Positions 24,277 to 63,761 are shown, counted from the whole stretch's first letter. The stretch is 64,000 bases of DNA, filler included, from Perkinsus olseni (GCA_013115125.1; 3 parts of 3 records of this genome joined end to end with filler, not necessarily neighbours in it); one strand, 5' to 3'. Numbers and translations are program-made. The notes: a model not told the origin generated them from the letters alone.

Positions 24277-24376
24277 NNNNNNNNNNNNNNNNNNNNNNNN
24301 NNNNNNNNNNNNNNNNNNNNTTAATTAATTAANNNNNNNNNNNNNNNNNNNNNNNNNNNNNNNNNNNNNNNNNNNN
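24277..24376. other. Artificial contig-join linker
   Basis: N run + TTAATTAATTAA + N run, exactly 100 nt; the same linker recurs at 48515. Confidence 0.97.
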
Positions 24377-35268: not shown

Positions 35269-36400
35269 ATGTGCGAGAGGGCTCCGAATACGCTGAAATC
35301 AGTGCCGCGTCGCCGGTGTGGGTCGACGCGCAGCGGACGTTGCGGAGTTCCCGCGGGACTTCGCATAACCTTCACGCCGAAGGCCGGGACTATAATCAGC
35401 CATGAAACATTATCTCCCACCGAGTCTTTCCGTCCTGGAACTCTCGGTGGGTCACCCACGGTGGGTGGCCGTGAGATTTGGGCCCCGGACCTGAGTGCTG
35501 TTGATGCAGCGGATTCTTTGGGTAGTGTGGTACTCTGGCATTGTTTGAACGCAGCAACGCACATCATCTTGCCCCCGGTGTCAACTAAAAGGTCCAGCGT
35601 GAGATGAGGACAGGCCACTGAGAAGAATTCGCTATCGCCTACAGATATGTGTGAGTCCCTGCTTCGCGAAGGACAAAGGTCGGCTTATGAATCAGTCACC
35701 CCTTCTTCGATACGGAGAAGGCCCAGCTAAGGGTCAACCGTTAGCGTCGAAGCAGCCGTGATGATTCCTGCTGCTCCCCGAGCAAGGGACCTGATGTGCC
35801 TCTCTATTGGTGGCCGTACCTACCGCAGCAAGGTCGCTTCACTGGGCTTGGGGCTGAGGCCTCTCTCGCCGATGAGGACCCAGAAGGGCGCACGTCTTGG
35901 GAGGATCATACCTCTACCAACGGCGATTGCTCTCAACGCAACGGCGGTGAGGCTCGCCGCCGTCGCGGCTCCACACTCTCATACAGCAACAACTACTTCC
36001 GTTATCATCCCACGTTAGTGCCGTCTTCATCGACGGCTTTCTCTTCCGGGAGTCCACTCCGCAGGTGTGTGTGTTATGGTGTCAGTTCATAGTAGCTGCC
36101 TTTGCAGTTCGTCAAGCTGTCACGGTCTGGAGAAGATGTCAAGACTTGCTGTCGGTCGCACCGAAGGGCTTGACAGTCAAGCCCTTCGGTGCGACCGACC
36201 TGAGAGCTCTGGCTTCAATCCGAATTCTGGACCGAGGATCGGAGCCTCCCTATCACATGGCTATTTGGATACCTTACCGAAGAGATGGCCGGACGTATAC
36301 ACTCTGGCGTTATGCATCGTTGTCAACAGGTTCGGTACTAAAGAGGCAACTAGCAACTAGCCTCGCGAGTATCACTACGAATGACATTGATATTGAATAA
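35269..36400 (+). CDS. Hypothetical spliced protein
   Basis: Successive plus-strand ORF blocks (35269, 35796, 36065); no recognised domain. Confidence 0.3.
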
Positions 36401-40599: not shown

Positions 40600-43500
40600 G
40601 CAGGCGCAGAATTTCGATTTCAACTTGAATTTTTGAACCAACTTGGATGAGCATAGTGAGGGGCGGCTCGTTCCGTACAAGCCGGTCCTGACCATAGGAA
40701 ATCCAGTTAGGCTAGGATTCTTTTTTATCTTTCGTTGATTGTCCGCGAACCGTTACGTTGATGGTTGATACGACGCTTTCGCAACGCCAGAGGGATGGAA
40801 TCAAATCGAATTCTCGCGCTCCCCATCTCTTGCACCTCGTGCCCCAGTTACATACCAACACTTTCATTACTAACGGATTCCATGGGACATGGTCTGACGA
40901 GCTGCTGGGTGTTGGAGAGCCCGTCGGGAAATTGTGAATCGCCATTTTCAAGTATGTTTTGACCTTCTTCTCTCTAAAGCGCGTTTCGTTCCATTCAATT
41001 AGGAGCTTCTTTGCGGGTCCCAGTTTTATATTATAATGTCGCGCTGGCTTGTACGGACTAGGTTCCTCCGCGAGCAAGCGAGTCCGCGATTCTCAGCGTC
41101 AACTGCGATTATCCCGCGGACCGAGAAGAAGCAAGCAGGAGCTTTTCAATGGCCATTCATCCACCGCAAATCGATCACTAATGGCATACAGAAGGCCATA
41201 CTCGGAACTAAAGGTAACGGGATTATATTTTCTCCGAGATCCTCGTCGGGTCTTTCCTGGACATACGGCGCTATCGGGTTGAGCAACGTGCCCTTCATCG
41301 TCTGATTGAATCAGAATCAGATCGACTCAGCAAAGTTACTACTCAGGTTCATCGGATACTTCTATTACGTGGGTTGTCGGTCCCAGAGGGTGCGGAAAGA
41401 CTACCGCCATTATGTCTACTCCTGTACAGGCTTCACAAGCTGTCGCCCTCCAATTCGATTTCCTGAGCACGGAAGAGTAAGTCTGGTATCGAAGTAGCGG
41501 CAATGCTGGTTGTACATTCCTCTCCCGGGGGTTTTCATAACTCTGGAGGTTTGCTCGCCGACTCGAACCGCTGCCTCGTATTCACGCATCACGGTGGACT
41601 CCACGGGGTGGAGAGAGACTACTTGTTGTAGTTCGGTCTGTCGGGAGTCAGTGCTATCCGATTAAGCCATTAGACGATCAATCTACTATTGCTGAAAGCT
41701 CTTGCGGATGGCCTACCGTCTATAGGAAGAAGTTGGGTAAGATATTTGGAGATAGTTCCGATATTACCTATGGGCCTGACAATTCTACGGAAGAGGGAGC
41801 CCCTGTAGGTCTCACTTTCAATTCATTTGATGTCGATGATAACCAGAACGGGTCCCCCATTATTGACACTCAAGTTTGTCGGATGAGCGAGGCCATCCGT
41901 CACGAATGATCCGTATCAATCATGGCCTGAATGCGCTCCATCTAACAGTTAGGAGACATTTCTAAGAAATGATTTCTTCGTTACGAAAAAATTTGAACGA
42001 GAGTAAGAGTCGGAGGAGAAAGTAATCGGCAGTACCGAGTCGGAACATATAGTGGTACTCAAAACTGGCGGAGGCTGACAAGGATCGACTGCGGTACAAG
42101 CAGTGCAAGAGAGATCATTCTGAAGTCACAGTAGCCGAGTTCAAGGGCGGGGTAAGAGCGAACCTGAAGGCTCAGGCTGAGCGACTCCGTCCCGATGTTA
42201 CTGGAGGATGAGGCTAAGGTTCGTTCAGAGGGAAGTTCTACTCGACGTAAAACCGACCAAGGGTGTAGCGGAACGCTTGGATATTGGGAGTTATGGACAG
42301 ATGTCGAGTCTGTTTGTTACGAATCTCCTGCTCTGCCGTACACCATGTTCCGTAATGCGTTGATAGCAGCTGGTAGATTCTACAAGTTGAACGAAGACGT
42401 CATGGCAGACTACATCTTCAGAAATCTATCCCCTGGTCTTGCTTCTTCATACAGTCTTCACGAAACTGCAGTGCATGATGCAATTTGCCTCGCAAGTTTC
42501 GATCCCATGCATTCTCTTGAGTACGAATCGCTAGGCGATTTTACCACCCATCGAGCGCGTCGCTGCCTCACAGTCAGCCGTGTATTGTAGCGGTTTTGAT
42601 ATGCCGTTTTACCACTATTCGACTGTGATGATGTTGGGATTGCTCAGGCAAGACCTCGACGAGCTGAGCGCTGGCATGGAGCAGTCGTTACGGAAGCAGA
42701 TCCTTCGGGCTTGGTTCAAAGAGTGGACGGTTCAAGGCGTTTATCAGGGCATCTGCGACTTCTATCGAGAGCATCTAGGATGCGAGTTCGATGAAGTAGG
42801 CGCTTGGCAGCTATCGCGCTTATTCCCTGTGGTCGATAGGTCCTTCCTGAGTATCTCGCATCTTCACACTTGTCGCAATTGGTGCGGCAGAACGTCACAG
42901 GATACAAGCTGTGGGCACTGACGGTGCAGCACGGCGGCAACAATTCGGGAGAGGGCGCATTAGAACTCGGTAGATCTGCGGCCCATCCCTCGCTCGTCCG
43001 TTCCGTCCTGCTACGGGGCGGTAGGGACCAGGGCGCATTCCATCGGATGCTGTCAACCTTTCGTGGTCTGGGTTGATGCTCAGGAGTCTTCCCGTGTGGC
43101 CGGGTTTTCCTTTGCAGTATCAGCTTTCAACACCTTAGTGGCTGCAAACAGTTAGTTGTGTTTTGTCCTCAGGAAGCAAAATACTAAGCCACTACCTCCT
43201 GGCGAACAATGTCGTTAACAGAACATCTGTGCCGGTGAAGCTGCTGCTTCTCCTGTCCAACCGTATGCTCAAAAAGGACCAGAAGCTAGCTCTATGCCTG
43301 TATGTCATGGGTTAACGGTACCACTGTAGCTGCATACCAATAGTATCGTTTAAGATAGTCTGCAGTACCCAAACTAGATCCGCTATCGGAGTGAACGCGA
43401 CGGTCGCGGAGTTTTTCAGCTCTTTCGTGCGACCCTAAGCTTCTGCCACAACGCTTCGCTCACCTGCTAGGTTCCACGTCGATGTAGCTGATCGAAGTCC

Positions 43501-46385
43501 TAGGTCGTCTAACAAGGCTGGCCATTCCGAAGGGACGGTATAGCCTGCGCCAGCTGTTACTCTGCCCGACATGCTGCCCTCCTCAGAAAGACTTCCTTCC
43601 CCAACTGATGGCCTGTGCTGTTGACACTGGAACGAATCTAGTGTTGGAGTGCGACGACAACATAACGCAGATCTCACTGATAGATCCCGAGAGCCACAGC
43701 GTCGTAGAATTGGCCGATTTCACCATGGAATCTGTGAGCCTTGGGCCAGTCACGACCGCTGGAACCCTTGCACTAGGTTCGCCACGTATTCGTTCCCAAT
43801 CTTCTCTCCGACCGTCCGACAGCAACAGCCGAAGGTACCTGCTGCCAGGACGTGCTGATGGCGCATTCGATTGGATATCAGGCCGGGCTGGCGATTACCA
43901 GCGGGACGATGCTGGGCACTTCGACGCCCTCTGGAGGCTGTTTGGCGGTCATCCAGCCACTCTCAGAAAACTCAGCGAGTGAGCCGGAAATCCGCTAGAT
44001 TTTTCGATGTGTTACCACTGAGGTACTTCGACGAGGCTACGAAGATGGATAAGGCGGAGCGGACGAAAAAGGAGATGGAGATGCGGGAGCATCGGAAGAG
44101 GGGCAAGATGCGGGACATAGTGTCCCCTTGCGTGTTTGAAGGGACGATACGAAAAAATGATGCGCTTAGGTGGGCACTTCCACTTACTCTTCCGGGGACT
44201 TGCGAAGCTAACTCGATCGCTCGGGAGCACCCGTGGGTTATCTGCTAGATTTGTCAGATTCCCTCGTTCGAATGGAGGAGGCTGCATGTCCTTTCAGGAA
44301 CTGCGCGACCGTTTTGATGAGCACCGACCCAAGTGCGCCGCTCCGTGCCGATCTGGCAATCTTCGACGAGCAGATAGCCGAGTTGATGAACAGTCGGCCT
44401 TTGCAGAATATTCGACGAGGACTCGCTGACTTGAGCTCAGGCTCTATGTGTCCGGTGAGGACCGCATCTTCCCGGACGGGAGCTATCTTTCTTGAGACTC
44501 TCAGGTGGAGTACAAAGTGATCGTGCTCGAGAGTGTCCGACATATCGTCAAGCGATGTACCAGGGATGGCGGGATAGTGGTGCCCGCAGGTCTCACACGT
44601 AGCTGGAGGGACCCGTGTTTATTCTTCGTGGCAAACTTGGCCACGTCACAGATGAGGCGCCGGTCGAGGGTCTCGTGAATAATGCGGCTGGCGATTTTCA
44701 AATAGGAGAAAGACCCAGCGTGAGTCGAGTGATGGAAGGCAGCTTCGTCTGTCAGTTGCTGATATCCGTCATCCAGTCGTGGTCGGCATGCTGCATGCCA
44801 ATCTCCTGTCCTGTAAATGGAAGCCTGTGCCAAGAGTCCAAGTGGCGAGTGTGTTGACGAGACGCCTCTTGCTCGACTGGGCCGACTCAGAGTTCGATGC
44901 GATGACTCCCATCGATAAGGCCAAGTACTAAGGACAGCAGTCAGTCGTTCTGTTCCATAGACGTCCTCGTTCGAGTCTCACGATCGCCGCGGCTGGCAGG
45001 TATAACCTCACAGCGATGCGAAACCGAAAGGACATCATCAATCAAGTTGATCATCTTGGGTTACGAGGAAGTCATGCTTTCACCTGACTCTTGTGCCTTT
45101 CCGACGTTACTGTTTCGGACACGTTCGTTTGAGTATTTTTGTTACACCGAGTTCTATGGTTGAGTCCGAGCCAAGGATACACGATGTTGTAATCAACTTC
45201 AAAGTGTGAACTGCTGGGAGGTTATGAGAACTGTCAATGCCACGTGGTAGTTGGAGCCCGTTGATAACTTGACGGACTACGAAAATTTTGATCGATATCA
45301 GTGCAGGGCCCAAGTTTCGCGGTAACAAACAGCTCCCACCTCACGATATAATTCCCGTTGAGTAAGGTCTGTGAACAATGTCTTTCGGTTTACTGATGAA
45401 AAACACTATGTTGGGTTGACACTAGAACGACCTCAAACGCGAGGACAGCATCAGTCATGAAGGCATGAACGAACGCCATTTTTCGTCAACAGCACTCAGA
45501 CTGTACGGAGGGGTTGCTTCAGAACAGGACGATCGATCAACAGTGACTGAGGGAAGCAGACGGAGCAACGGATTATGGGCATCTGGTTTCGTTTGAAGGT
45601 GTTGCACCTATCTCGTATTTCGCTCCTGACGGTCTCCCTGCAGCTCCCGGCGCTGTTAAGGTCGTCGTAGAAGTCGAGTGGAATCCTACCTGATGTTATG
45701 ATCTCCTAATTATGACGCGATAGAACTCGCATGATCGTGTTACAAGAGCAGCGAAACCTCGGGAATGTGAATCTTGAGCTTACTCTATTTCGTGTATGTA
45801 AATTGGAGTTGTGTTGCCCAGTCAACCTCCCACCAGGAAGGGTTGTATCAGACATGCCGTTACAGTGAATACTACTGAGTACGAAGGTCAGCCTAGCAGC
45901 TGAGCCTACTCCTCTCTTGGGGATAATGACCCCACCAGAGAAGGAAAGAATCATTAATCCGTAATCCGACAATCTAATCCGTAAATCTACACAATCCGTA
46001 ATTCCTTCGTTAGAAATTGTTCAACACTGTTTCACCGTCTAGATGTATAGAACGTAACGTCGCAAACATGCTGGACATACGAAGAGGTCGACACGGCTAT
46101 CCTGCGCACCCACTTGCCTTCATCATTCGGGGATACATGAGAACGCTGAAACAAACTGATACATTCCGATTTAGCTTTGTTCTCACACAACTGTTAACTG
46201 TTAGCGTTGTGAATTTGTGAGCAATCGTCGAGAAGAAGAACTCGTACTCCGATGAGCAACGGACTGCTTACAACTTTCACTACGTTTCAACACTGACAGC
46301 AATCGTTATTCGGAAAAACGAGCACCCTCAAGGTTAATTCGACCTCAACTATCCGGTGTATTGGTTAGAGGCTGAATTTTCTATG
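40600..46385. mobile_element. Degenerate repeat/transposon-derived region, possibly LTR-retrotransposon remnants
   Basis: Intron-poor broken ORFs; aspartic-protease-like CAVDTG at ~43610; integrase-like LIDISAGP at ~45290; many stops and frameshifts. Confidence 0.35.
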
Positions 46386-47869
46386 CAAACCCCGCGCTGA
46401 AAGTGCGTCCCACCCAACACTCGCAACTAAACTCGCCCACCCTTGCCAGAAATGTAGCCTGCGGCTCCAAATTGGTACTGTCGTGGCCCCACCACCGACA
46501 CACCCAATTTGGACAAGTAACTTCCCCCCAAACCCCGCAGGCTAACATTCGGCACTCTATCCGAAGTCTGTCGCCGAGCTCGTCGAGGTCACCTTTGCCA
46601 CACCGTGTACTACAATACTTATACAATCTATACAACCGCTCATCACCAGCTCTCCGGCTCCTGCAGCCAATCATCCCCCGGCCTCGAAATCTCGTTGTGG
46701 AAGGTTAGCTGTATCATCTCCGGCGCACCGTTAATCGAAGACGTGACCGGTGGTAGTTGTCGCAGGTTGTAGCCGGGATCGTCGTCGCGTGGCCACTGCT
46801 GATACTCGAGGAAGCGGTCGTCGTTAATGACACCCAGGTTGTTTGTAGCTCCCATTCCGCCGGCATCTGGACGCGCGGCGTCAGTACTCGGTAAGTAGTG
46901 CTGTAGCCTCGTCGTAGTAGAGTAGCAGGGTTCCGCCCATGAGCCAATTGCCCGAGTTGCGTAGCCGGTGCCGTAAGTCACCAGCATCGACTCCTGAATG
47001 TAGAGGTCGACGGCAGGGCTCCGCCAACGTCCAAACACTTGTATCTCCTCCCTTGTGAGGCCGGCTCGCACCAGTAGCCATGCCCCACCCCGTCTCATAG
47101 AATGCGTGCCCCAATGGTACTTGTCATTATCGGTGACACCGACCCGACTGAGGTCTCCACGCAGGTTTCTCAACCAGGTGCGCTTGGCCCAGGGTTCGCC
47201 AGATGCTCTTGCAAACAGCCACTCTGTCGCCGGTCTCCCTATCCTCCTGGCCAGCTGCAGGAGGTCGTCCATAGTGTGTACCGGGCAGAGGCGCTGCCCC
47301 TCAGGGCCCGCCCCGCAGCAGCATCCGTGGGTCCTAGTTACGCCTTCCCCACCTATGTCGGTCTTGCTGCTGCTGATGAATAGTGATACCGAACAGTCGA
47401 CCAGGTTCACCGTGGCGTCGCTCAACTTGAGCCGAACCAATTCGGATACTCTCAGCATAAACCAGCACCCAATGATGTAACCCCACGATCGCTGGCAAGC
47501 CTCGTAGCCATCAGCGTCTTCACCCATCGCCAGCAGCTGATTCACAGACAGCGGCCTTACCTGCTTGCTGGGGCCGATCCCTCGTGAGCAGGCACGTTTC
47601 ACCCGCTTCAGGGCCTGCTTCTCAGCAACGCCCAGCGGGTAGCCCGCATCGGCGCTGGTGGCGGCGGCTTGCCGTATGTAGGAGTAAGCGCTACGGTACT
47701 TACACTCCTTGAGGATGGCGGCGACTTCTTCGATGGATTGCACCGTGAGGGGGTACTCCGCGTGGCCGAGCCGCTTTGTCAGCCTTTGCCAAAGTCTTTG
47801 CCGCGATCGCCGGGGCCCAACCGTTGTAGCGGCGTACACGTCGGCTCGCAGGACAAGTAACTTCCCCCC
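46386..47869 (-). mobile_element. Compact tyrosine-recombinase element (DIRS/Ngaro/PAT-like) with short split direct repeats
   Basis: A = GGACAAGTAACTTCCCCCC at 47851-47869 and 46511-46529; B = CAAACCCCGC at 46386-46395 and 46529-46538; YR ORF lies inside. Confidence 0.8.
46643..47839 (-). CDS. Tyrosine recombinase (phage-integrase family, DIRS-type)
   Basis: FMLRVSEL (R), SSKTD (K), LCPVH, THSMRRGGA (HxxR), FGRWRS (W), VDLYI (Y): complete catalytic set; intronless. Confidence 0.92.
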   Translation of the reverse strand: MYAATTVGPRRSRQRLWQRLTKRLGHAEYPLTVQSIEEVAAILKECKYRSAYSYIRQAAATSADAGYPLGVAEKQALKRVKRACSRGIGPSKQVRPLSVNQLLAMGEDADGYEACQRSWGYIIGCWFMLRVSELVRLKLSDATVNLVDCSVSLFISSSKTDIGGEGVTRTHGCCCGAGPEGQRLCPVHTMDDLLQLARRIGRPATEWLFARASGEPWAKRTWLRNLRGDLSRVGVTDNDKYHWGTHSMRRGGAWLLVRAGLTREEIQVFGRWRSPAVDLYIQESMLVTYGTGYATRAIGSWAEPCYSTTTRLQHYLPSTDAARPDAGGMGATNNLGVINDDRFLEYQQWPRDDDPGYNLRQLPPVTSSINGAPEMIQLTFHNEISRPGDDWLQEPESW

Positions 47870-48041
47870 TACGAGGAAAAGAAAGAAAAAAAAATGATGG
47901 GCTCAGGGCAACTGAGAGACTACGAATCGACAATGGTACGCTTTAACGGGGCTCCTCCAACCGAAAGGACTCGCCACGACACTGTAGGGTAGTCAGAGCT
48001 AGTGCTGGCGCGCGCGCTCTCATCGCTGGATTTGCACCACT

Positions 48042-48514
48042 CTACACTTTGTGTAGCGTTACAGGCAAGCGGCGGTCCCACTCAACGAGCTCGTCCCGAT
48101 GAAGTTTTCTTCTCACATCACCGGCGTTGCAAAGGACGTTAGACTCATCATCGGTGGCCAGCAGACCAGCACCCTCCTCATCATCACTATCAACAACATC
48201 AGCGGCGGCTTTCCTTCTACTCCTTCTGAACCGCGAAAAGATACTCGAACGCTCTTGGTTCTCAACCCTCGACTTTCTCAAGATCACATACTCAGACGTT
48301 TCTCCCAAGGGCGAGTCCATCCCTGGCACGATGACGGATATTACTCCGTTACAAAGTCGATGATATGTCACGTAGTAGTCTTCCTCGTCGTCTGCTTCCC
48401 TCAGAGTAAGGCTTGCTTCGCTAACCTGGCTCTTCTGGACGCCGAGAGAGACGCTTCTTCTCATTCGGCTACCGGTGTAGAAGCCGTCTTCCACTGACGA
48501 TTGAGGGAAGGGAT
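48042..48514 (-). CDS. Hypothetical intronless ORF fragment next to the gap, possibly transposon-derived
   Basis: 150-aa open frame; no recognised domain. Confidence 0.25.
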
Positions 48515-48614
48515 NNNNNNNNNNNNNNNNNNNNNNNNNNNNNNNNNNNNNNNNNNNNTTAATTAATTAANNNNNNNNNNNNNNNNNNNNNNNNNNNNNN
48601 NNNNNNNNNNNNNN
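48515..48614. other. Artificial contig-join linker
   Basis: N run + TTAATTAATTAA + N run, 100 nt. Confidence 0.97.
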
Positions 48615-60635: not shown

Positions 60636-60708
60636 GGTTTCTATGGTGTAACGGTTAGCACTCCAGACTCTGAATCTGGCGATCTGGGTTCAAATCCCGG
60701 TAGAACCT
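60636..60708 (+). tRNA. trnQ: tRNA-Gln (CTG)
   Basis: TGGTGTAACGG A-box; anticodon arm CCAGA-CTCTGAA-TCTGG; T-arm CTGGG-TTCAAAT-CCCGG; 3' end TAGAACCT. Confidence 0.9.
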
Positions 60709-61057
60709 TCTCTCTGTCCTGTCCCTACTGAATCCGAGATGATTTACAGCGTTCTTGTTGAAGGTGTGAACTTATGAAGGAGTTGAAATTTATTAAAGAG
60801 TGGTTACGCAGCAATGGAGAATATGAACTAGACACAAATCTCACTCTCGGTTATGATGACGACAAGAAGATTCGATAAGAGAAACCAGGTTTCTTTGCAC
60901 CGTATGATTTGCGTTGCGGTATAGTTGCTCGAGTGCTGAAATATTCACCATTGGAAGGGGATTATTAAATCCTCAAGACTTCCGTATTGAACACAACACC
61001 TCTCGAGGATTTTACGGTGAGTTTTTAGCAGAAACTCTATTTTAACAACACCAGTGT

Positions 61058-62297
61058 TTAAGCCTTCATAGCGGTCTGAATCTCCTCCCAAACCTAAGAA
61101 AGCGAATACAGCGTGTGGGTTAGTGTTTGGGCAGTTAAGTCTACGCATTACCTTCTCCATGCCCTGATTGGCGTTCACGTGCTTGACGACACCAGTGGGA
61201 GCGTAGTGGGCAACGATGGGCTCGGTTTGCGAATGATAAGCAGACAACCTGACAACGAGCGAATGATGGGGACAATCGGCAAGACTTGTGCAGACCGGTT
61301 CAATGTCATCATTGGCGAATAGACGGAACGCAGGACTACCTGGTCTTGAGTGCATCAGCAGTATCGTCAGGACGCTGGATGAGAGCCTCGCCGGTCACAT
61401 CGTCGAGCATATTGCTGGCGTCGGGTGTGACACCAGCGGGAAGAGATTTCGGAGGGTTGAACCTGTCCAAAGAAGCCTGATGTAACAGCGTATAAGGCTG
61501 AAACTATTCCACAGTGATACTGTGGCAGTGTAGTCTCGCCCCCGATACGCATCCAAGCGCTCACGTACTTGACATGGTAAGAGCGTCCACTAGGCTTGTG
61601 GATCCATCGGCCGCAGATCCTCTCTTCAAGGACCGAGTCGGGCAAATCGAGAACGATCACCTGTACATGTTAGACATGGGGCTTAGCGGAGGAGTACCGC
61701 TGCCCACTCGGACGAGCAGTAATTCGAATTCATGCTACAATCTATACCACTAGCCATATCACCTTGGTAACACGCTCTTCATTCTCAGCAAGCATGGCAT
61801 CGAGAGCGCTGGCTTGCTCAACAGTTCGCGGGAAACCATCGAGAATGAATCCCCAACCGGCATCCATCTCCTGGATCCTGATCAGACACCAAGTTCAGCA
61901 CAGCGATGAAGGACAGTAGATTCTGCTTTCAGGCTGGCCTTCAGTTTTTTATTACCTGTCCTTAATGATTCCGATAACAATGTCATCGCTGACGAGCTCG
62001 CCGCGTGCCATCACATCCTTAGCCTTAAGTCCAATGGGGGTCTCAGCGGCAACGGCAGCACGGAGCATGTCACCGGTAGAGAGCTGAGGGATCTTGTAGG
62101 CTGAAAATTCACACGTAAGTCGCGCATGGCATCACACGAGCTTCAACCGCGAACGGTCCGAAACGTCTCATCTTCGTATTACTTTCTTCCATCTTGGGTC
62201 CCTGAGTTCCCTTACCGGCACCCGGGGGTCCGAAAAGGATGACGATCTTTCTCCACTGCTTGGGGGGCTGTTCAGAACCACGGAGATTGGCGGACAT
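61058..62297 (-). CDS. ADK: Adenylate kinase (spliced)
   Basis: [74 protein letters not shown]. Confidence 0.95.
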
Positions 62298-63074
62298 ATC
62301 TATCGATTGGAAGGAAGAAAACTGACGGTTCCGATTCAGTAGACTCTTCCGAGAGCGTCGAGTATTCCAATTCGAAAACAAAATTCGACATTTTACCTCT
62401 GCAATTAGCGAAGCATCAAACCTCAGCTGTTCAAAAGAGACGCCACAACCCCTCCTCATCACTCCCTGATCCGACGTACTAAAAACGACTGGGCTTGCAT
62501 GTACTTGACTGAATTTGAAAAACTTGCGTGAATTCTTTGGGAAAGCCTTCTTGATGACCCGCAACATCATATCATCTTCGTCGAATAGTCGTGTGCATAT
62601 GTGTTTCGCTATGAACTCGATTAGGGGGCGTTGTGAGAATCACAGTAAAAGCGCATCTTCTTTAGCGCGCGCCCGTTGCTCGCTCAAGGTTATTGCCATG
62701 CACGGTTTCGCATTGTGTTCTGCTGAATCGCCAGAACGACTGCATCGGATGCAGTCGATGAGAATGACTCATTTCCCACGATTGCGTGAATGCATCTGCA
62801 CTCGAATGATTCGATTAGGGAGCTCTCGATTAGATTGCTTTTACCGATATCCTTCAATTATGTGGAGGACCTCGGCGATGGGGTTGCGATAACCAGAGGG
62901 AATGCTCGGGTCGACCGAGCTGTCCCTCTCGTGGTCCTTAATTGACCAATAAACTCAATACCGAGCTCCGCTCTTTGGTAGAACAATGAAGAACAAGGGG
63001 CACGGAGTCTCCCCGTCACCTCGCCGTCGTTGGTAGTCCAGGCGGTCGAGGGGGTCTACAAACTACCTCTCGAG

Positions 63075-63148
63075 GCCCGATTAGTTCAGCTGAATAGAAT
63101 GTCTGCCTACGGAGCAGATGGTCATAGGTTCGAATTCTGCAACGGGTA
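63075..63148 (+). tRNA. trnR: tRNA-Arg (ACG), with some stem mismatches
   Basis: Anticodon arm TCTGC-CTACGGA-GCAGA; GGTTCGAAT; acceptor GCCCGAT/AACGGGT. Confidence 0.7.
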
Positions 63149-63194
63149 GGTTATCAACAAATTACGACGTTGCCATTTGTCAAATGTACGATGA

Positions 63195-63276
63195 CGACAC
63201 CTGAGAGCTTCGAACCCTCTCGGGCATAGCCCAACGGCTTAGCAGGCCGCAGCCTTAACCACTCGGCCAAAGTGTC
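63195..63276 (-). tRNA. trnS: tRNA-Ser (GCT) with long variable arm
   Basis: Minus strand GACACTTTGGCCGAGTGGTTAAGG..GCGGC-CTGCTAA-GCCGT..GGGC-TAT-GCCC..GAGGGTTCGAAGCTCTC. Confidence 0.85.
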
Positions 63277-63567
63277 TACTGTTATTTGTAGTCGACTCAT
63301 CGGAGGTTTCCGACTCAAAAAATACGTTACTCCCTCTACTATGCGGAAATTCGGAGGATGCTTTCGGTGTGGGCCTAAGGACTTGTGGTTCATCGACTGT
63401 GATCAATTGGTCAATTGATCAGGTGATGTATCGCATAATCATTATTTTGAATTTTATGCTGATTGATGATCAATCGATCAATTTATCGGTCAGCGAATGA
63501 TTGATTCCTCAACTCCAATGACGAAAACGTCCAGGCCGGCGAGGAGGTTTACAAACTACTTCTGGGT

Positions 63568-63634
63568 GCCCGATTAGTTCGGCTGGATAGAATGTCTGCC
63601 TACGGAGCAGATGATCGGAATCCTGCCTCGAGTA
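63568..63634 (+). pseudogene. tRNA-Arg(ACG) pseudogene with the T-arm partly deleted
   Basis: Near-identical 5' part to the 63075 copy but lacks GGTTCG. Confidence 0.75.
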
Positions 63635-63679
63635 GGCTATAAGCTCTTGCCGAAGTTGCCATATCCCTCGGATAGACGA

Positions 63680-63761
63680 CGACACCGGAGGAATTCGCAC
63701 CCTCGCGGACATAGCCCAACAGCTTAGCAGGCCGCGGCGTTAACCACTAGGCCAAAGTATC
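63680..63761 (-). pseudogene. tRNA-Ser(GCT) degenerate copy
   Basis: Aligns to 63195-63276 with multiple substitutions, including GGGTGCGAAT in the T-loop. Confidence 0.7.

Follow-up and report, generated by a model that had tools for sequence, protein, structure and literature searches.

Just past the open reading frame (ORF) of a tyrosine recombinase (YR) in Perkinsus olseni, a parasite of oysters and clams, lies a two-stem hairpin whose 21-nt bulge is made up of parts of two short direct repeats, and together the hairpin and the repeats look like a miniature version of the repeat layout known from YR retroelements. Our tentative reading is that the bulge corresponds to the point where B1 meets A2 in a miniature split direct repeat, and that it lies within a structured 3' module belonging to a relic copy; we regard this as quite possible though short of probable. 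An earlier note made from the sequence alone had proposed that the hairpin displays the end-junction sequence of an element, and had likened it to the internal end copies of DIRS elements and to the bridge RNAs of IS110; the present analysis supports that interpretation in part, since a split-direct-repeat junction fits but an internal complementary region (ICR) or a bridge RNA does not.

The window, by which we mean the whole stretch of DNA analysed (64,000 nt, filler included), consists of contigs chained by N44-TTAATTAATTAA-N44 linkers at 24277–24376 and 48515–48614, and the contig carrying the element ends at 48514. The features discussed below are listed in Table 1.

Table 1. Features of the P. 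olseni element, with positions counted from the first letter of the window.
Feature	Position	Strand	Basis or remark
Mobile unit, 1680 bp: 5' region, YR ORF and 3' module	46383..48062	-	Contig joint and diverging flanks
Conserved 5' region occurring in multiple genomic copies; small hairpin (48041-48055) at the terminus	47902..48062	-	Contigs
32-nt spacer: polypyrimidine tract ending TAG, annotated 3' splice site	47870..47901	-	Forms local pairs with the A1 G-run
A1: 19-nt copy opening the annotated YR exon and encoding GGKLLV	47851..47869	-	Exact match to A2
YR exon, within ORF 46643-47902	46643..47869	-	Pfam, protein match and alignment of relatives
3' module: last 19 YR codons, stop codon and hairpin	46384..46700	-	About 99% identical to at least one copy with other flanks
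Hairpin: outer stem, inner stem-loop and asymmetric 21-nt bulge	46444..46554	.	Folding, RNA and DNA parameters
Outer stem, left arm, TAGCCTGCGG	46455..46464	.	Partner is 46535-46544
Inner stem, left arm, TCCAAATTGG	46466..46475	.	Partner is 46504-46513
Inner stem, right arm, CCAATTTGGA	46504..46513	.	3 nt in common with A2
Bulge, 21 nt	46514..46534	.	Folding
Outer stem, right arm, CCGCAGGCTA	46535..46544	.	4 nt in common with B1
A2: 19-nt internal copy, GGACAAGTAACTTCCCCCC	46511..46529	-	Repeat family D2, 100% identity, spacing 1340
B1: 10-nt internal copy, CAAACCCCGC, adjoins A2	46529..46538	-	Repeat search
B2: 10-nt copy of CAAACCCCGC, 2-3 nt short of the 3' end set by the reads	46386..46395	-	Repeat search and contigs

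Fold of the hairpin

The two pairings claimed in the earlier note, 46455–46464 with 46535–46544 and 46466–46475 with 46504–46513, are both present as perfect 10-bp stems. Also present are the inner TGTCG/CGACA pairing, which caps the inner stem as a small stem-loop, and the outer TGCC/GGCA pairs; the outer stem is lengthened by a few outer pairs. Folding of both strands, which the note had proposed as a check, bore the structure out: as RNA, the + strand folds with an MFE of -47.6 kcal/mol (z -7.4) and the - strand with an MFE of -53.8 kcal/mol (z -3.5), with none of 200 shuffles folding as well on either strand, and the z-score of the hairpin with DNA parameters is -6.9. When folded within the 317-nt 3' module, both stems have pair probabilities of 0.9–1.0 on both strands, and most positions of the bulge on the sense strand have probabilities of 0.8–0.96 of being unpaired (five positions go down to 0.11–0.40 and one is at 0.56).

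One perfect 10-bp inverted repeat is ordinary in this DNA, as perfect 10-bp inverted repeats within 120 nt occur at 10 loci in the window compared to about 6.6 k-mer matches in block shuffles, and the fold is exceptional because two of them are nested. [quoted passage not shown] Rfam gave no match to a known RNA family at the site at E ≤ 10 (a lone, chance-level snoRNA match was found elsewhere), no tRNA was found at the hairpin site, and a protein search across the hairpin module gave no match. A literature search, conducted mostly at the level of records, found no hairpin-displayed junction in YR retrotransposons.

In the IS110 system, the recombinase has DEDD (RuvC-like) and Tnp domains and the RNA has separate target- and donor-binding loops. 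The analogy drawn in the earlier note, in which the hairpin would be a programmable guide whose loop pairs with donor and target DNA, did not hold up and we consider it extremely improbable. The only likeness is that a folded strand carries element-end sequence in an internal loop, whereas the enzyme here is a tyrosine recombinase and not a DEDD/serine IS110 recombinase, and the window fold has a single bulge with no target-matching half in place of two loops with paired guide halves. The absence of an Rfam match at the site also counts against a bridge RNA, as does a comparison by eye of the bulge with four flank sequences taken from contigs, none of which matched it.

Ends, copies and derivatives of the mobile unit

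Other copies were seen through Logan contigs of four public runs on the interval 43000–48514, noting that contigs drop rare forms. X1 and X4 are DNA runs, and X7 and X8 behave as RNA; we read them as RNA because their contigs of a neighbouring gene are GT..AG-spliced, and strand, ends and level are not readable from such contigs. A joint from 46382 to 48063, seen in both X1 and X4, skips 1680 bases and represents a paralogous site lacking 46383–48062. In the contigs, sequence matching from 46383/4 rightward is joined to two or more other left flanks, and a copy that is 93% alike diverges past 48068, and we place the unit between 46383/4 and about 48062 because of the 1680-base joint and the copies diverging at both edges. 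The 10-mer B2 is 2–3 nt from this true 3' end, and position 47869 lies 193 nt short of the DNA 5' end, the mobile unit continuing past A1 for 193 further bases (47870–48062). The earlier note had taken the bulge to be the core of a copy of both termini, and here the 3' half of the claim stands but the 5' half does not: 19 nt and 10 nt do recur and the 10-mer is found at the 3' end, but 47869 is not a DNA terminus, as the joint skips the whole of 46383–48062.

The element has no TIRs and no target-site duplication (TSD) beyond a 1-nt ambiguity. A repeat search of 46300–48150 found no terminal inverted pair, and the best inverted match between the ends covers 18 of 24 nt with a score of 23 (shuffle mean 19.4, maximum 33).

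A second joint seen in both DNA runs, from 46533 to 47902, skips 1368 bases and represents a YR-less derivative that is broken inside the bulge; it has lost the right outer arm and retains 4 nt of internal context before the 19-mer. Because of these 4 nt, the YR-less form fits a deletion of the filled form better than an empty target, and as this derivative is broken in the bulge with the right outer arm gone, the complete hairpin is not present in all copies. A third joint, from 48514 to 46091 and again in both DNA runs, steps back 2424 bases with a shared piece of only 47 nt, and so the flanks are themselves a repeat mosaic. Taking the left-flank contig 43000–46244 as the baseline depth (X1 200, X4 76.3), the YR body is single-copy (178.6 over 46671–47909 in X1 and 69.8 over 46671–47884 in X4), and the summed bins of 46215–46700 and 47884–48514 have depths of 229–1431 in X1 and 101–453 in X4, which is about 1.1–7 times the baseline in X1. 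Loose contig ends among those listed are found at 46137, 46215, 46481, 46700 and 48068, with 46384 and 46700 recurring in all four runs, and the neighbourhood is a patchwork of pieces repeated 2–7 times with many breakpoints, one copy breaking in the hairpin loop at 46481.

The only other complete copy of the hairpin among the contigs listed is on a 453-nt contig of X7 (with a counterpart in X8) that carries 46384–46700 with other sequence on either side, giving about two near-identical full hairpins. Compared to the window, this copy lacks one C of the bulge and differs by two substitutions, both located beyond the hairpin, and the stems are unchanged, which suggests either youth or constraint, the two being indistinguishable here. 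No parent (full-length) copy was found among the contigs listed from the four runs, and among the joints listed there was no circle, tandem or excision joint at the 19-mers, the B repeats or the unit ends (again noting that contigs drop rare forms).

The hairpin might also be a relic palindrome without present function, part of a decayed fragment in a repeat mosaic whose repeats are leftovers of rearrangements. The patchwork neighbourhood with its five loose ends, a YR without a start codon, and copies broken inside the hairpin loop (46481) and the bulge (46533) are all consistent with this, but neither 10-bp stem contains a mismatch, and in the second full copy the stems are unaltered while two positions outside the hairpin differ, and we consider such a relic rather unlikely.

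Repeats carried by the bulge

A2 makes up the left part of the bulge plus 3 nt of the inner stem, and B1 the right part plus 4 nt of the outer stem. The complete 21-mer of the bulge occurs once in the window, even when up to three mismatches are allowed. The 19-mer is the sole repeat with 100% identity and a length of 19 nt in 46300–48150, all others, both direct and inverted, being imperfect or of 11–14 nt, and we estimate that about 5e-7 chance matches of a 19-mer would be expected in the 128 kb of both strands. The 10-mer, which is C-rich, is alone within chance as there are many 10-mer matches window-wide; it is notable by its location near the true 3' terminus and not by itself, and we put at about 1e-3 the chance that a 10-mer from the bulge would land only a few nt away from a terminus defined by other evidence. 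Viewed by eye, the 19-mer is an imperfect palindrome (GG..AAGT.ACTT..CC).

Both repeat pairs are direct and not complementary. Read in the sense (-) direction, the order is 5' region, polypyrimidine-AG, A1, YR, B1|A2 (the bulge), 115 nt, B2 and CAT, with A2 and B2 separated by these 115 nt and not adjacent. Two other origins were tried and rejected: a TSD or TPRT origin of the 19-mer (there is an A-rich tract but it is outside the repeat, and the YR-less form retains the 4 nt of internal context), and a supply of the YR N-terminus across the B|A junction (there is a stop codon 6 codons upstream of A2 in the frame of A1).

As the YR ORF lies between direct 19-nt repeats with a spacing of 1340 bp, the 19-mer could alternatively be the recombination core of the YR; the enzyme could then excise a 1340-bp circle, and the hairpin would represent a single-strand att site in folded form. 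The imperfect palindrome noted by eye would suit such a core, and DIRS-1 cDNA, which is single-stranded (PMC7192593), could gain a duplex substrate from a folded site. However, the joints listed include no 1340-bp deletion and no back-joint at the 19-mers, the YR-less form skips 1368 bp and retains 4 nt of internal context, which fits a deletion and not an empty att site, and the unit ends elsewhere, at 46383/4 and 48062. Furthermore, crossover at folded att sites takes place in duplex DNA, whereas the 19-mer here is mostly in the bulge, and on balance we find a recombination core improbable.

The recombinase and its relatives

The YR was identified by Pfam as PF00589 (Phage_integrase) with an E-value of 4.3e-6, at the gathering score. 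In a 30-sequence alignment of relatives, R130, K159, H246, R249 and Y280 are invariant and W272 is conserved in at least 90% of sequences; judged by these residues, the YR is a genuine catalytic-type recombinase in which the catalytic R-K-H-R-[H/W]-Y set is retained. The ORF has no ATG before residue ~127 and is without some 35–40 N-terminal residues found in relatives, and A1 sits where the homology to the N-termini of these relatives fades. It is identical to the P. olseni protein P0001 (500 aa), the gene model of which splices two small exons from 48464–48120 to 47869, which is base 1 of the 19-mer, and immediately upstream of this position there is a 25-nt polypyrimidine tract ending in TAG. 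The nearest protein to the YR is 55% identical, and there is no sequence relative in the PDB at E ≤ 1. We found no match to an RT family by Pfam in 11 neighbouring ORFs, and in a tblastn search the P. olseni relative P0003 matched the window by its YR part only.

An exhaustive profile-free search gave 2500 representatives at E ≤ 1e-3, most of 350–650 aa, in which the named YR relatives are from P. olseni and P. chesapeaki and the others are from marine metagenomes. From an 8-sequence alignment we obtained 21 metagenome loci, four of which gave near full-length matches (L001–L004) and were analysed, with the 17 short C-terminal matches set aside. In two of the four (L001 and L002) an RVT_1 ORF is directly upstream of the YR ORF and overlaps it, and the other two have too little upstream sequence. 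In the L001 and L002 pol ORFs, RVT_1 was the sole domain found by Pfam. The N-terminus of P0003 matches the C-terminal part of both (E 3e-6 and 2e-5), which by our reading may be the RNase H position, though Pfam gave no RNase H match there, and P0066 from P. chesapeaki shows weak collinear matches to a pol ORF (E 0.015–0.06). A search of 8000 candidates for longer, fused forms of the YR gave none at E ≤ 1e-10, a weak line of evidence. We assign the YR to the DIRS-order retrotransposons, with the order RT-RH-YR, because the relatives with context have RT upstream, and the window copy is at most a deleted derivative because it is without the RT and RH that these relatives carry. For Perkinsus marinus, PMC3266345 lists DIRS1-like elements by a GenBank entry only.

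Strong folds are found past the YR ORF in two of the four distant relatives (z -5.2 and -5.3), but a repeat or hairpin layout like that of the window was found in none of the four (seed 10, length 14), and the 3' regions of L001 and L002 did not align. Such folds could mean that the hairpin works as a structural signal at the 3' end of the RNA or first-strand cDNA, in RT recognition, self-priming or the formation of the transcript 3' end, with the repeats being by-products of a deletion or template switch. The position of the fold, with the stop codon 90 nt before it and the 3' end 60 nt away, is in keeping with such a signal, and a 3' hairpin of DIRS-1 is cited as a possible primer of reverse transcription in PMC7192593. 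The RNA-run contigs of another copy have depths of 20.7 and 52.1 on the 3' module compared to 2–6 on the YR body, and A1 is placed where the N-terminal homology fades and the 35–40 residues are missing, as it would be at a deletion junction. Nevertheless, this explanation needs two coincidences, as the 19-mer would have to fall in the only long unpaired stretch and do so beside the 10-mer of the true 3' end, and it also needs two template jumps to place the 19-mer at the deletion junction. We therefore judge a 3'-end signal with incidental repeats to be somewhat unlikely.

A proposed split direct repeat in the 3' module

In PAT, Ngaro and VIPER, split direct repeats have the order A1-B1-A2-B2 and the internal repeats are downstream of the YR, as described in PMC4157794. 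Both this order and the adjacency of B1 and A2 are present in the window, with B2 near the 3' end and A1 193 nt inside the 5' end. Under our preferred split-direct-repeat reading, the hairpin would be part of the conserved 3' module of a decayed, YR-only copy of a DIRS-order retrotransposon, and the gene order of the family would be RT, RNase H-like pol C-terminus and YR, as in Ngaro. By analogy with the logic of split direct repeats and the ICR, the internal junction could act as the template or acceptor for the reverse transcription that rejoins the 3' end to the 5' part of the RNA, and the two perfect stems would hold the B1|A2 junction single-stranded and accessible. We infer a role in strand transfer or circularisation from this analogy. 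The more specific proposal, that in this alveolate family a bulge clamped by the two stems displays the end-joining sequence, either as an RT acceptor on RNA or as a folded single-strand cDNA site for the YR, seems to us improbable, to the same degree as the recombination core.

Because A1 coincides with the annotated acceptor, the bulge might carry copies of the ends of a processed RNA and not of DNA ends. Since the window copy is devoid of RT, its YR is without a start codon and the YR body has single-copy depth, the site there is most probably a relic. In DIRS-1 the ICR is essential and the cDNA intermediates are single-stranded (PMC7192593).

Several observations were counted against the split-direct-repeat reading, and these are that A1 is 193 nt inside the 5' end, that the repeats are of 19 and 10 nt, that there is a gap between A2 and B2, and that no parent copy was found. 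Published split direct repeats are far longer than 19 and 10 nt. Also counted against it are the derivative broken in the bulge, the single-copy YR body, the nearest protein being only 55% identical, and the relatives without a comparable layout.

Comparison with known systems

The absence of a methyltransferase domain is a criterion for Ngaro-like elements; the window copy is without the pol region, and in the pol ORFs of L001 and L002 Pfam gave RVT_1 alone. With the YR retrotransposons that carry split direct repeats (Ngaro, PAT and VIPER; PMC4157794), the window shares RT-linked YR kin and the A1...YR...B1A2...B2 order, as well as the lack of a target-site duplication, here beyond the 1-nt ambiguity. 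It differs from them in having repeats of 19 and 10 nt, with A1 193 nt inside the unit and A2 and B2 115 nt apart, and gag, RT and RNase H are all missing from the window copy, whose junction sits in the bulge of a two-stem hairpin.

The DIRS1-like elements, which have ITRs and an ICR, have in common with the window an internal site of end sequence past the YR ORF. The ICR of DIRS-1 is experimentally essential according to PMC7192593, and it overlaps on a short circular junction according to PMC3266345. In contrast, the copies in the window are direct and not inverse-complementary, and there are no inverted terminal repeats. A DIRS1-type ITR/ICR arrangement was rejected, as both bulge copies are direct and the inverted match between the ends is below that of the best shuffle. 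The suggestion in the earlier note of an internal end copy as in DIRS elements thus survives in the A1-B1-A2-B2 order, which fits, but not as a DIRS1-type ICR, given the direct copies and lack of ITRs, and its 5' half is off the DNA end.

Cryptons are YR-only DNA transposons with a YR that does not descend from retroelements, and the window copy resembles them in encoding a YR only and in having no TIRs and no clear TSD. It differs in that those relatives of the YR with context have RT upstream, and in that the window ORF is without a start codon and N-terminus.

Integron attC and CTX phage attP are folded single-strand att sites of bacterial tyrosine recombinases. They share with the window a YR beside an imperfect hairpin with extrahelical bases, and a parallel can also be drawn with the single-stranded cDNA that is the replication intermediate of DIRS-1 (PMC7192593). 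In this comparison, which is a likeness by description, they differ in being bacterial and in having a duplex core, whereas the 19-mer of the window is mostly unpaired.

Significance

The kind of repeat layout described here is already known, and the structural twist is that the junction is shown in a bulge. To our knowledge, the rebuilding or joining of ends by YR retrotransposons is known experimentally only for DIRS-1. If other families display an internal end-junction in a hairpin bulge, the end-joining step would become directly testable, and if true, either of the roles considered for the bulge, as an RT acceptor or as a YR site, would give DIRS-order circularisation or integration a concrete and mutable structure. 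A folded single-strand cDNA site for the YR would, if true, be a eukaryotic counterpart of integron attC and CTX attP. The locus itself documents a DIRS-order relic of P. olseni that retains the YR only and carries split direct repeats of short length, ends present in multiple copies along with derivatives that have lost the YR, and a gene model, P0001, that joins flanking exons to the YR ORF.

Window make-up and neighbouring genes

The window consists of three contigs in an artificial chain, and the neighbourhood across either of the two linkers (see the table below) is therefore not real. The palindrome listed there is the longest inverted repeat of the window.

Features of the window and of two marine-metagenome loci carrying relatives of the YR (tyrosine recombinase); positions for L001 and L003 are those of the loci.
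Feature	Coordinates	Strand	Details
N44-TTAATTAATTAA-N44 linkers	24277-24376 and 48515-48614
Element-bearing contig	24377-48514		24138 bp
Perfect 24-nt palindrome	36151-36199		1-nt centre
Well-expressed neighbouring gene	43299-45000	-	RNA-run contigs X7 and X8
Small perfect hairpin	48041-48055		CTACAC AAA GTGTAG as read on the - strand; 7 nt separate it from the 5' end of the element
Four-gene tRNA cluster	60636-63761		Gln-CTG, Arg-ACG and two Ser-GCT
Strongly folded region after the YR ORF, L003	2510-2639		z -5.3
Strongly folded region after the YR ORF, L001	4010-4139		z -5.2

The well-expressed gene neighbouring the element contains nine short GT..AG introns of 43-171 nt, as seen in contigs from X7 and X8, two public runs behaving as RNA, in which its depth is ~109 and ~266, respectively. 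A further X8 contig stops at 45873 (- strand) with nine loose letters, TGAGCCAAG; we take their reverse complement to be the 3' portion of the Perkinsus spliced leader. A gene of low expression, encoded on the - strand and interrupted by an intron at 45687-45780, probably has its trans-splice acceptor at this position.

Relatives of the recombinase

The fold which follows the YR ORF in L003 is made up of two similar hairpins within an outer stem, with the arm GGCGTGCYGAGG common to both. Among the proteins recovered by the YR search, the representative P0019 (1729 aa, from ENA, on a contig of 138467 bp) matches the query over 28 short stretches, each separate from the others, yields odd fragments in Pfam and seems to be either repetitive or mis-called.

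The P0001 gene model and the element ends

The first two exons of the model for P0001, the P. olseni protein identical to the YR ORF of the element, lie at 48120-48464 (- strand), which is outside the read-defined element and in a flank repeated 2-4x. The model may for this reason be a chimera in which flank exons are joined to the recombinase ORF, with the 5' region of the element spanned as an intron. The G-run of A1, the 19-mer copy with which the annotated YR exon begins, can form nine pairs with the pyrimidine tract preceding it (47861-47881, - strand), and so this 5' copy, too, adjoins a local fold.

[quoted passage not shown] From this comparison, ATGCAA/AGGCAA may represent a short core common to the element junction and the target, which would be a candidate likeness to other tyrosine-recombinase elements, where junction and target have such a core in common.
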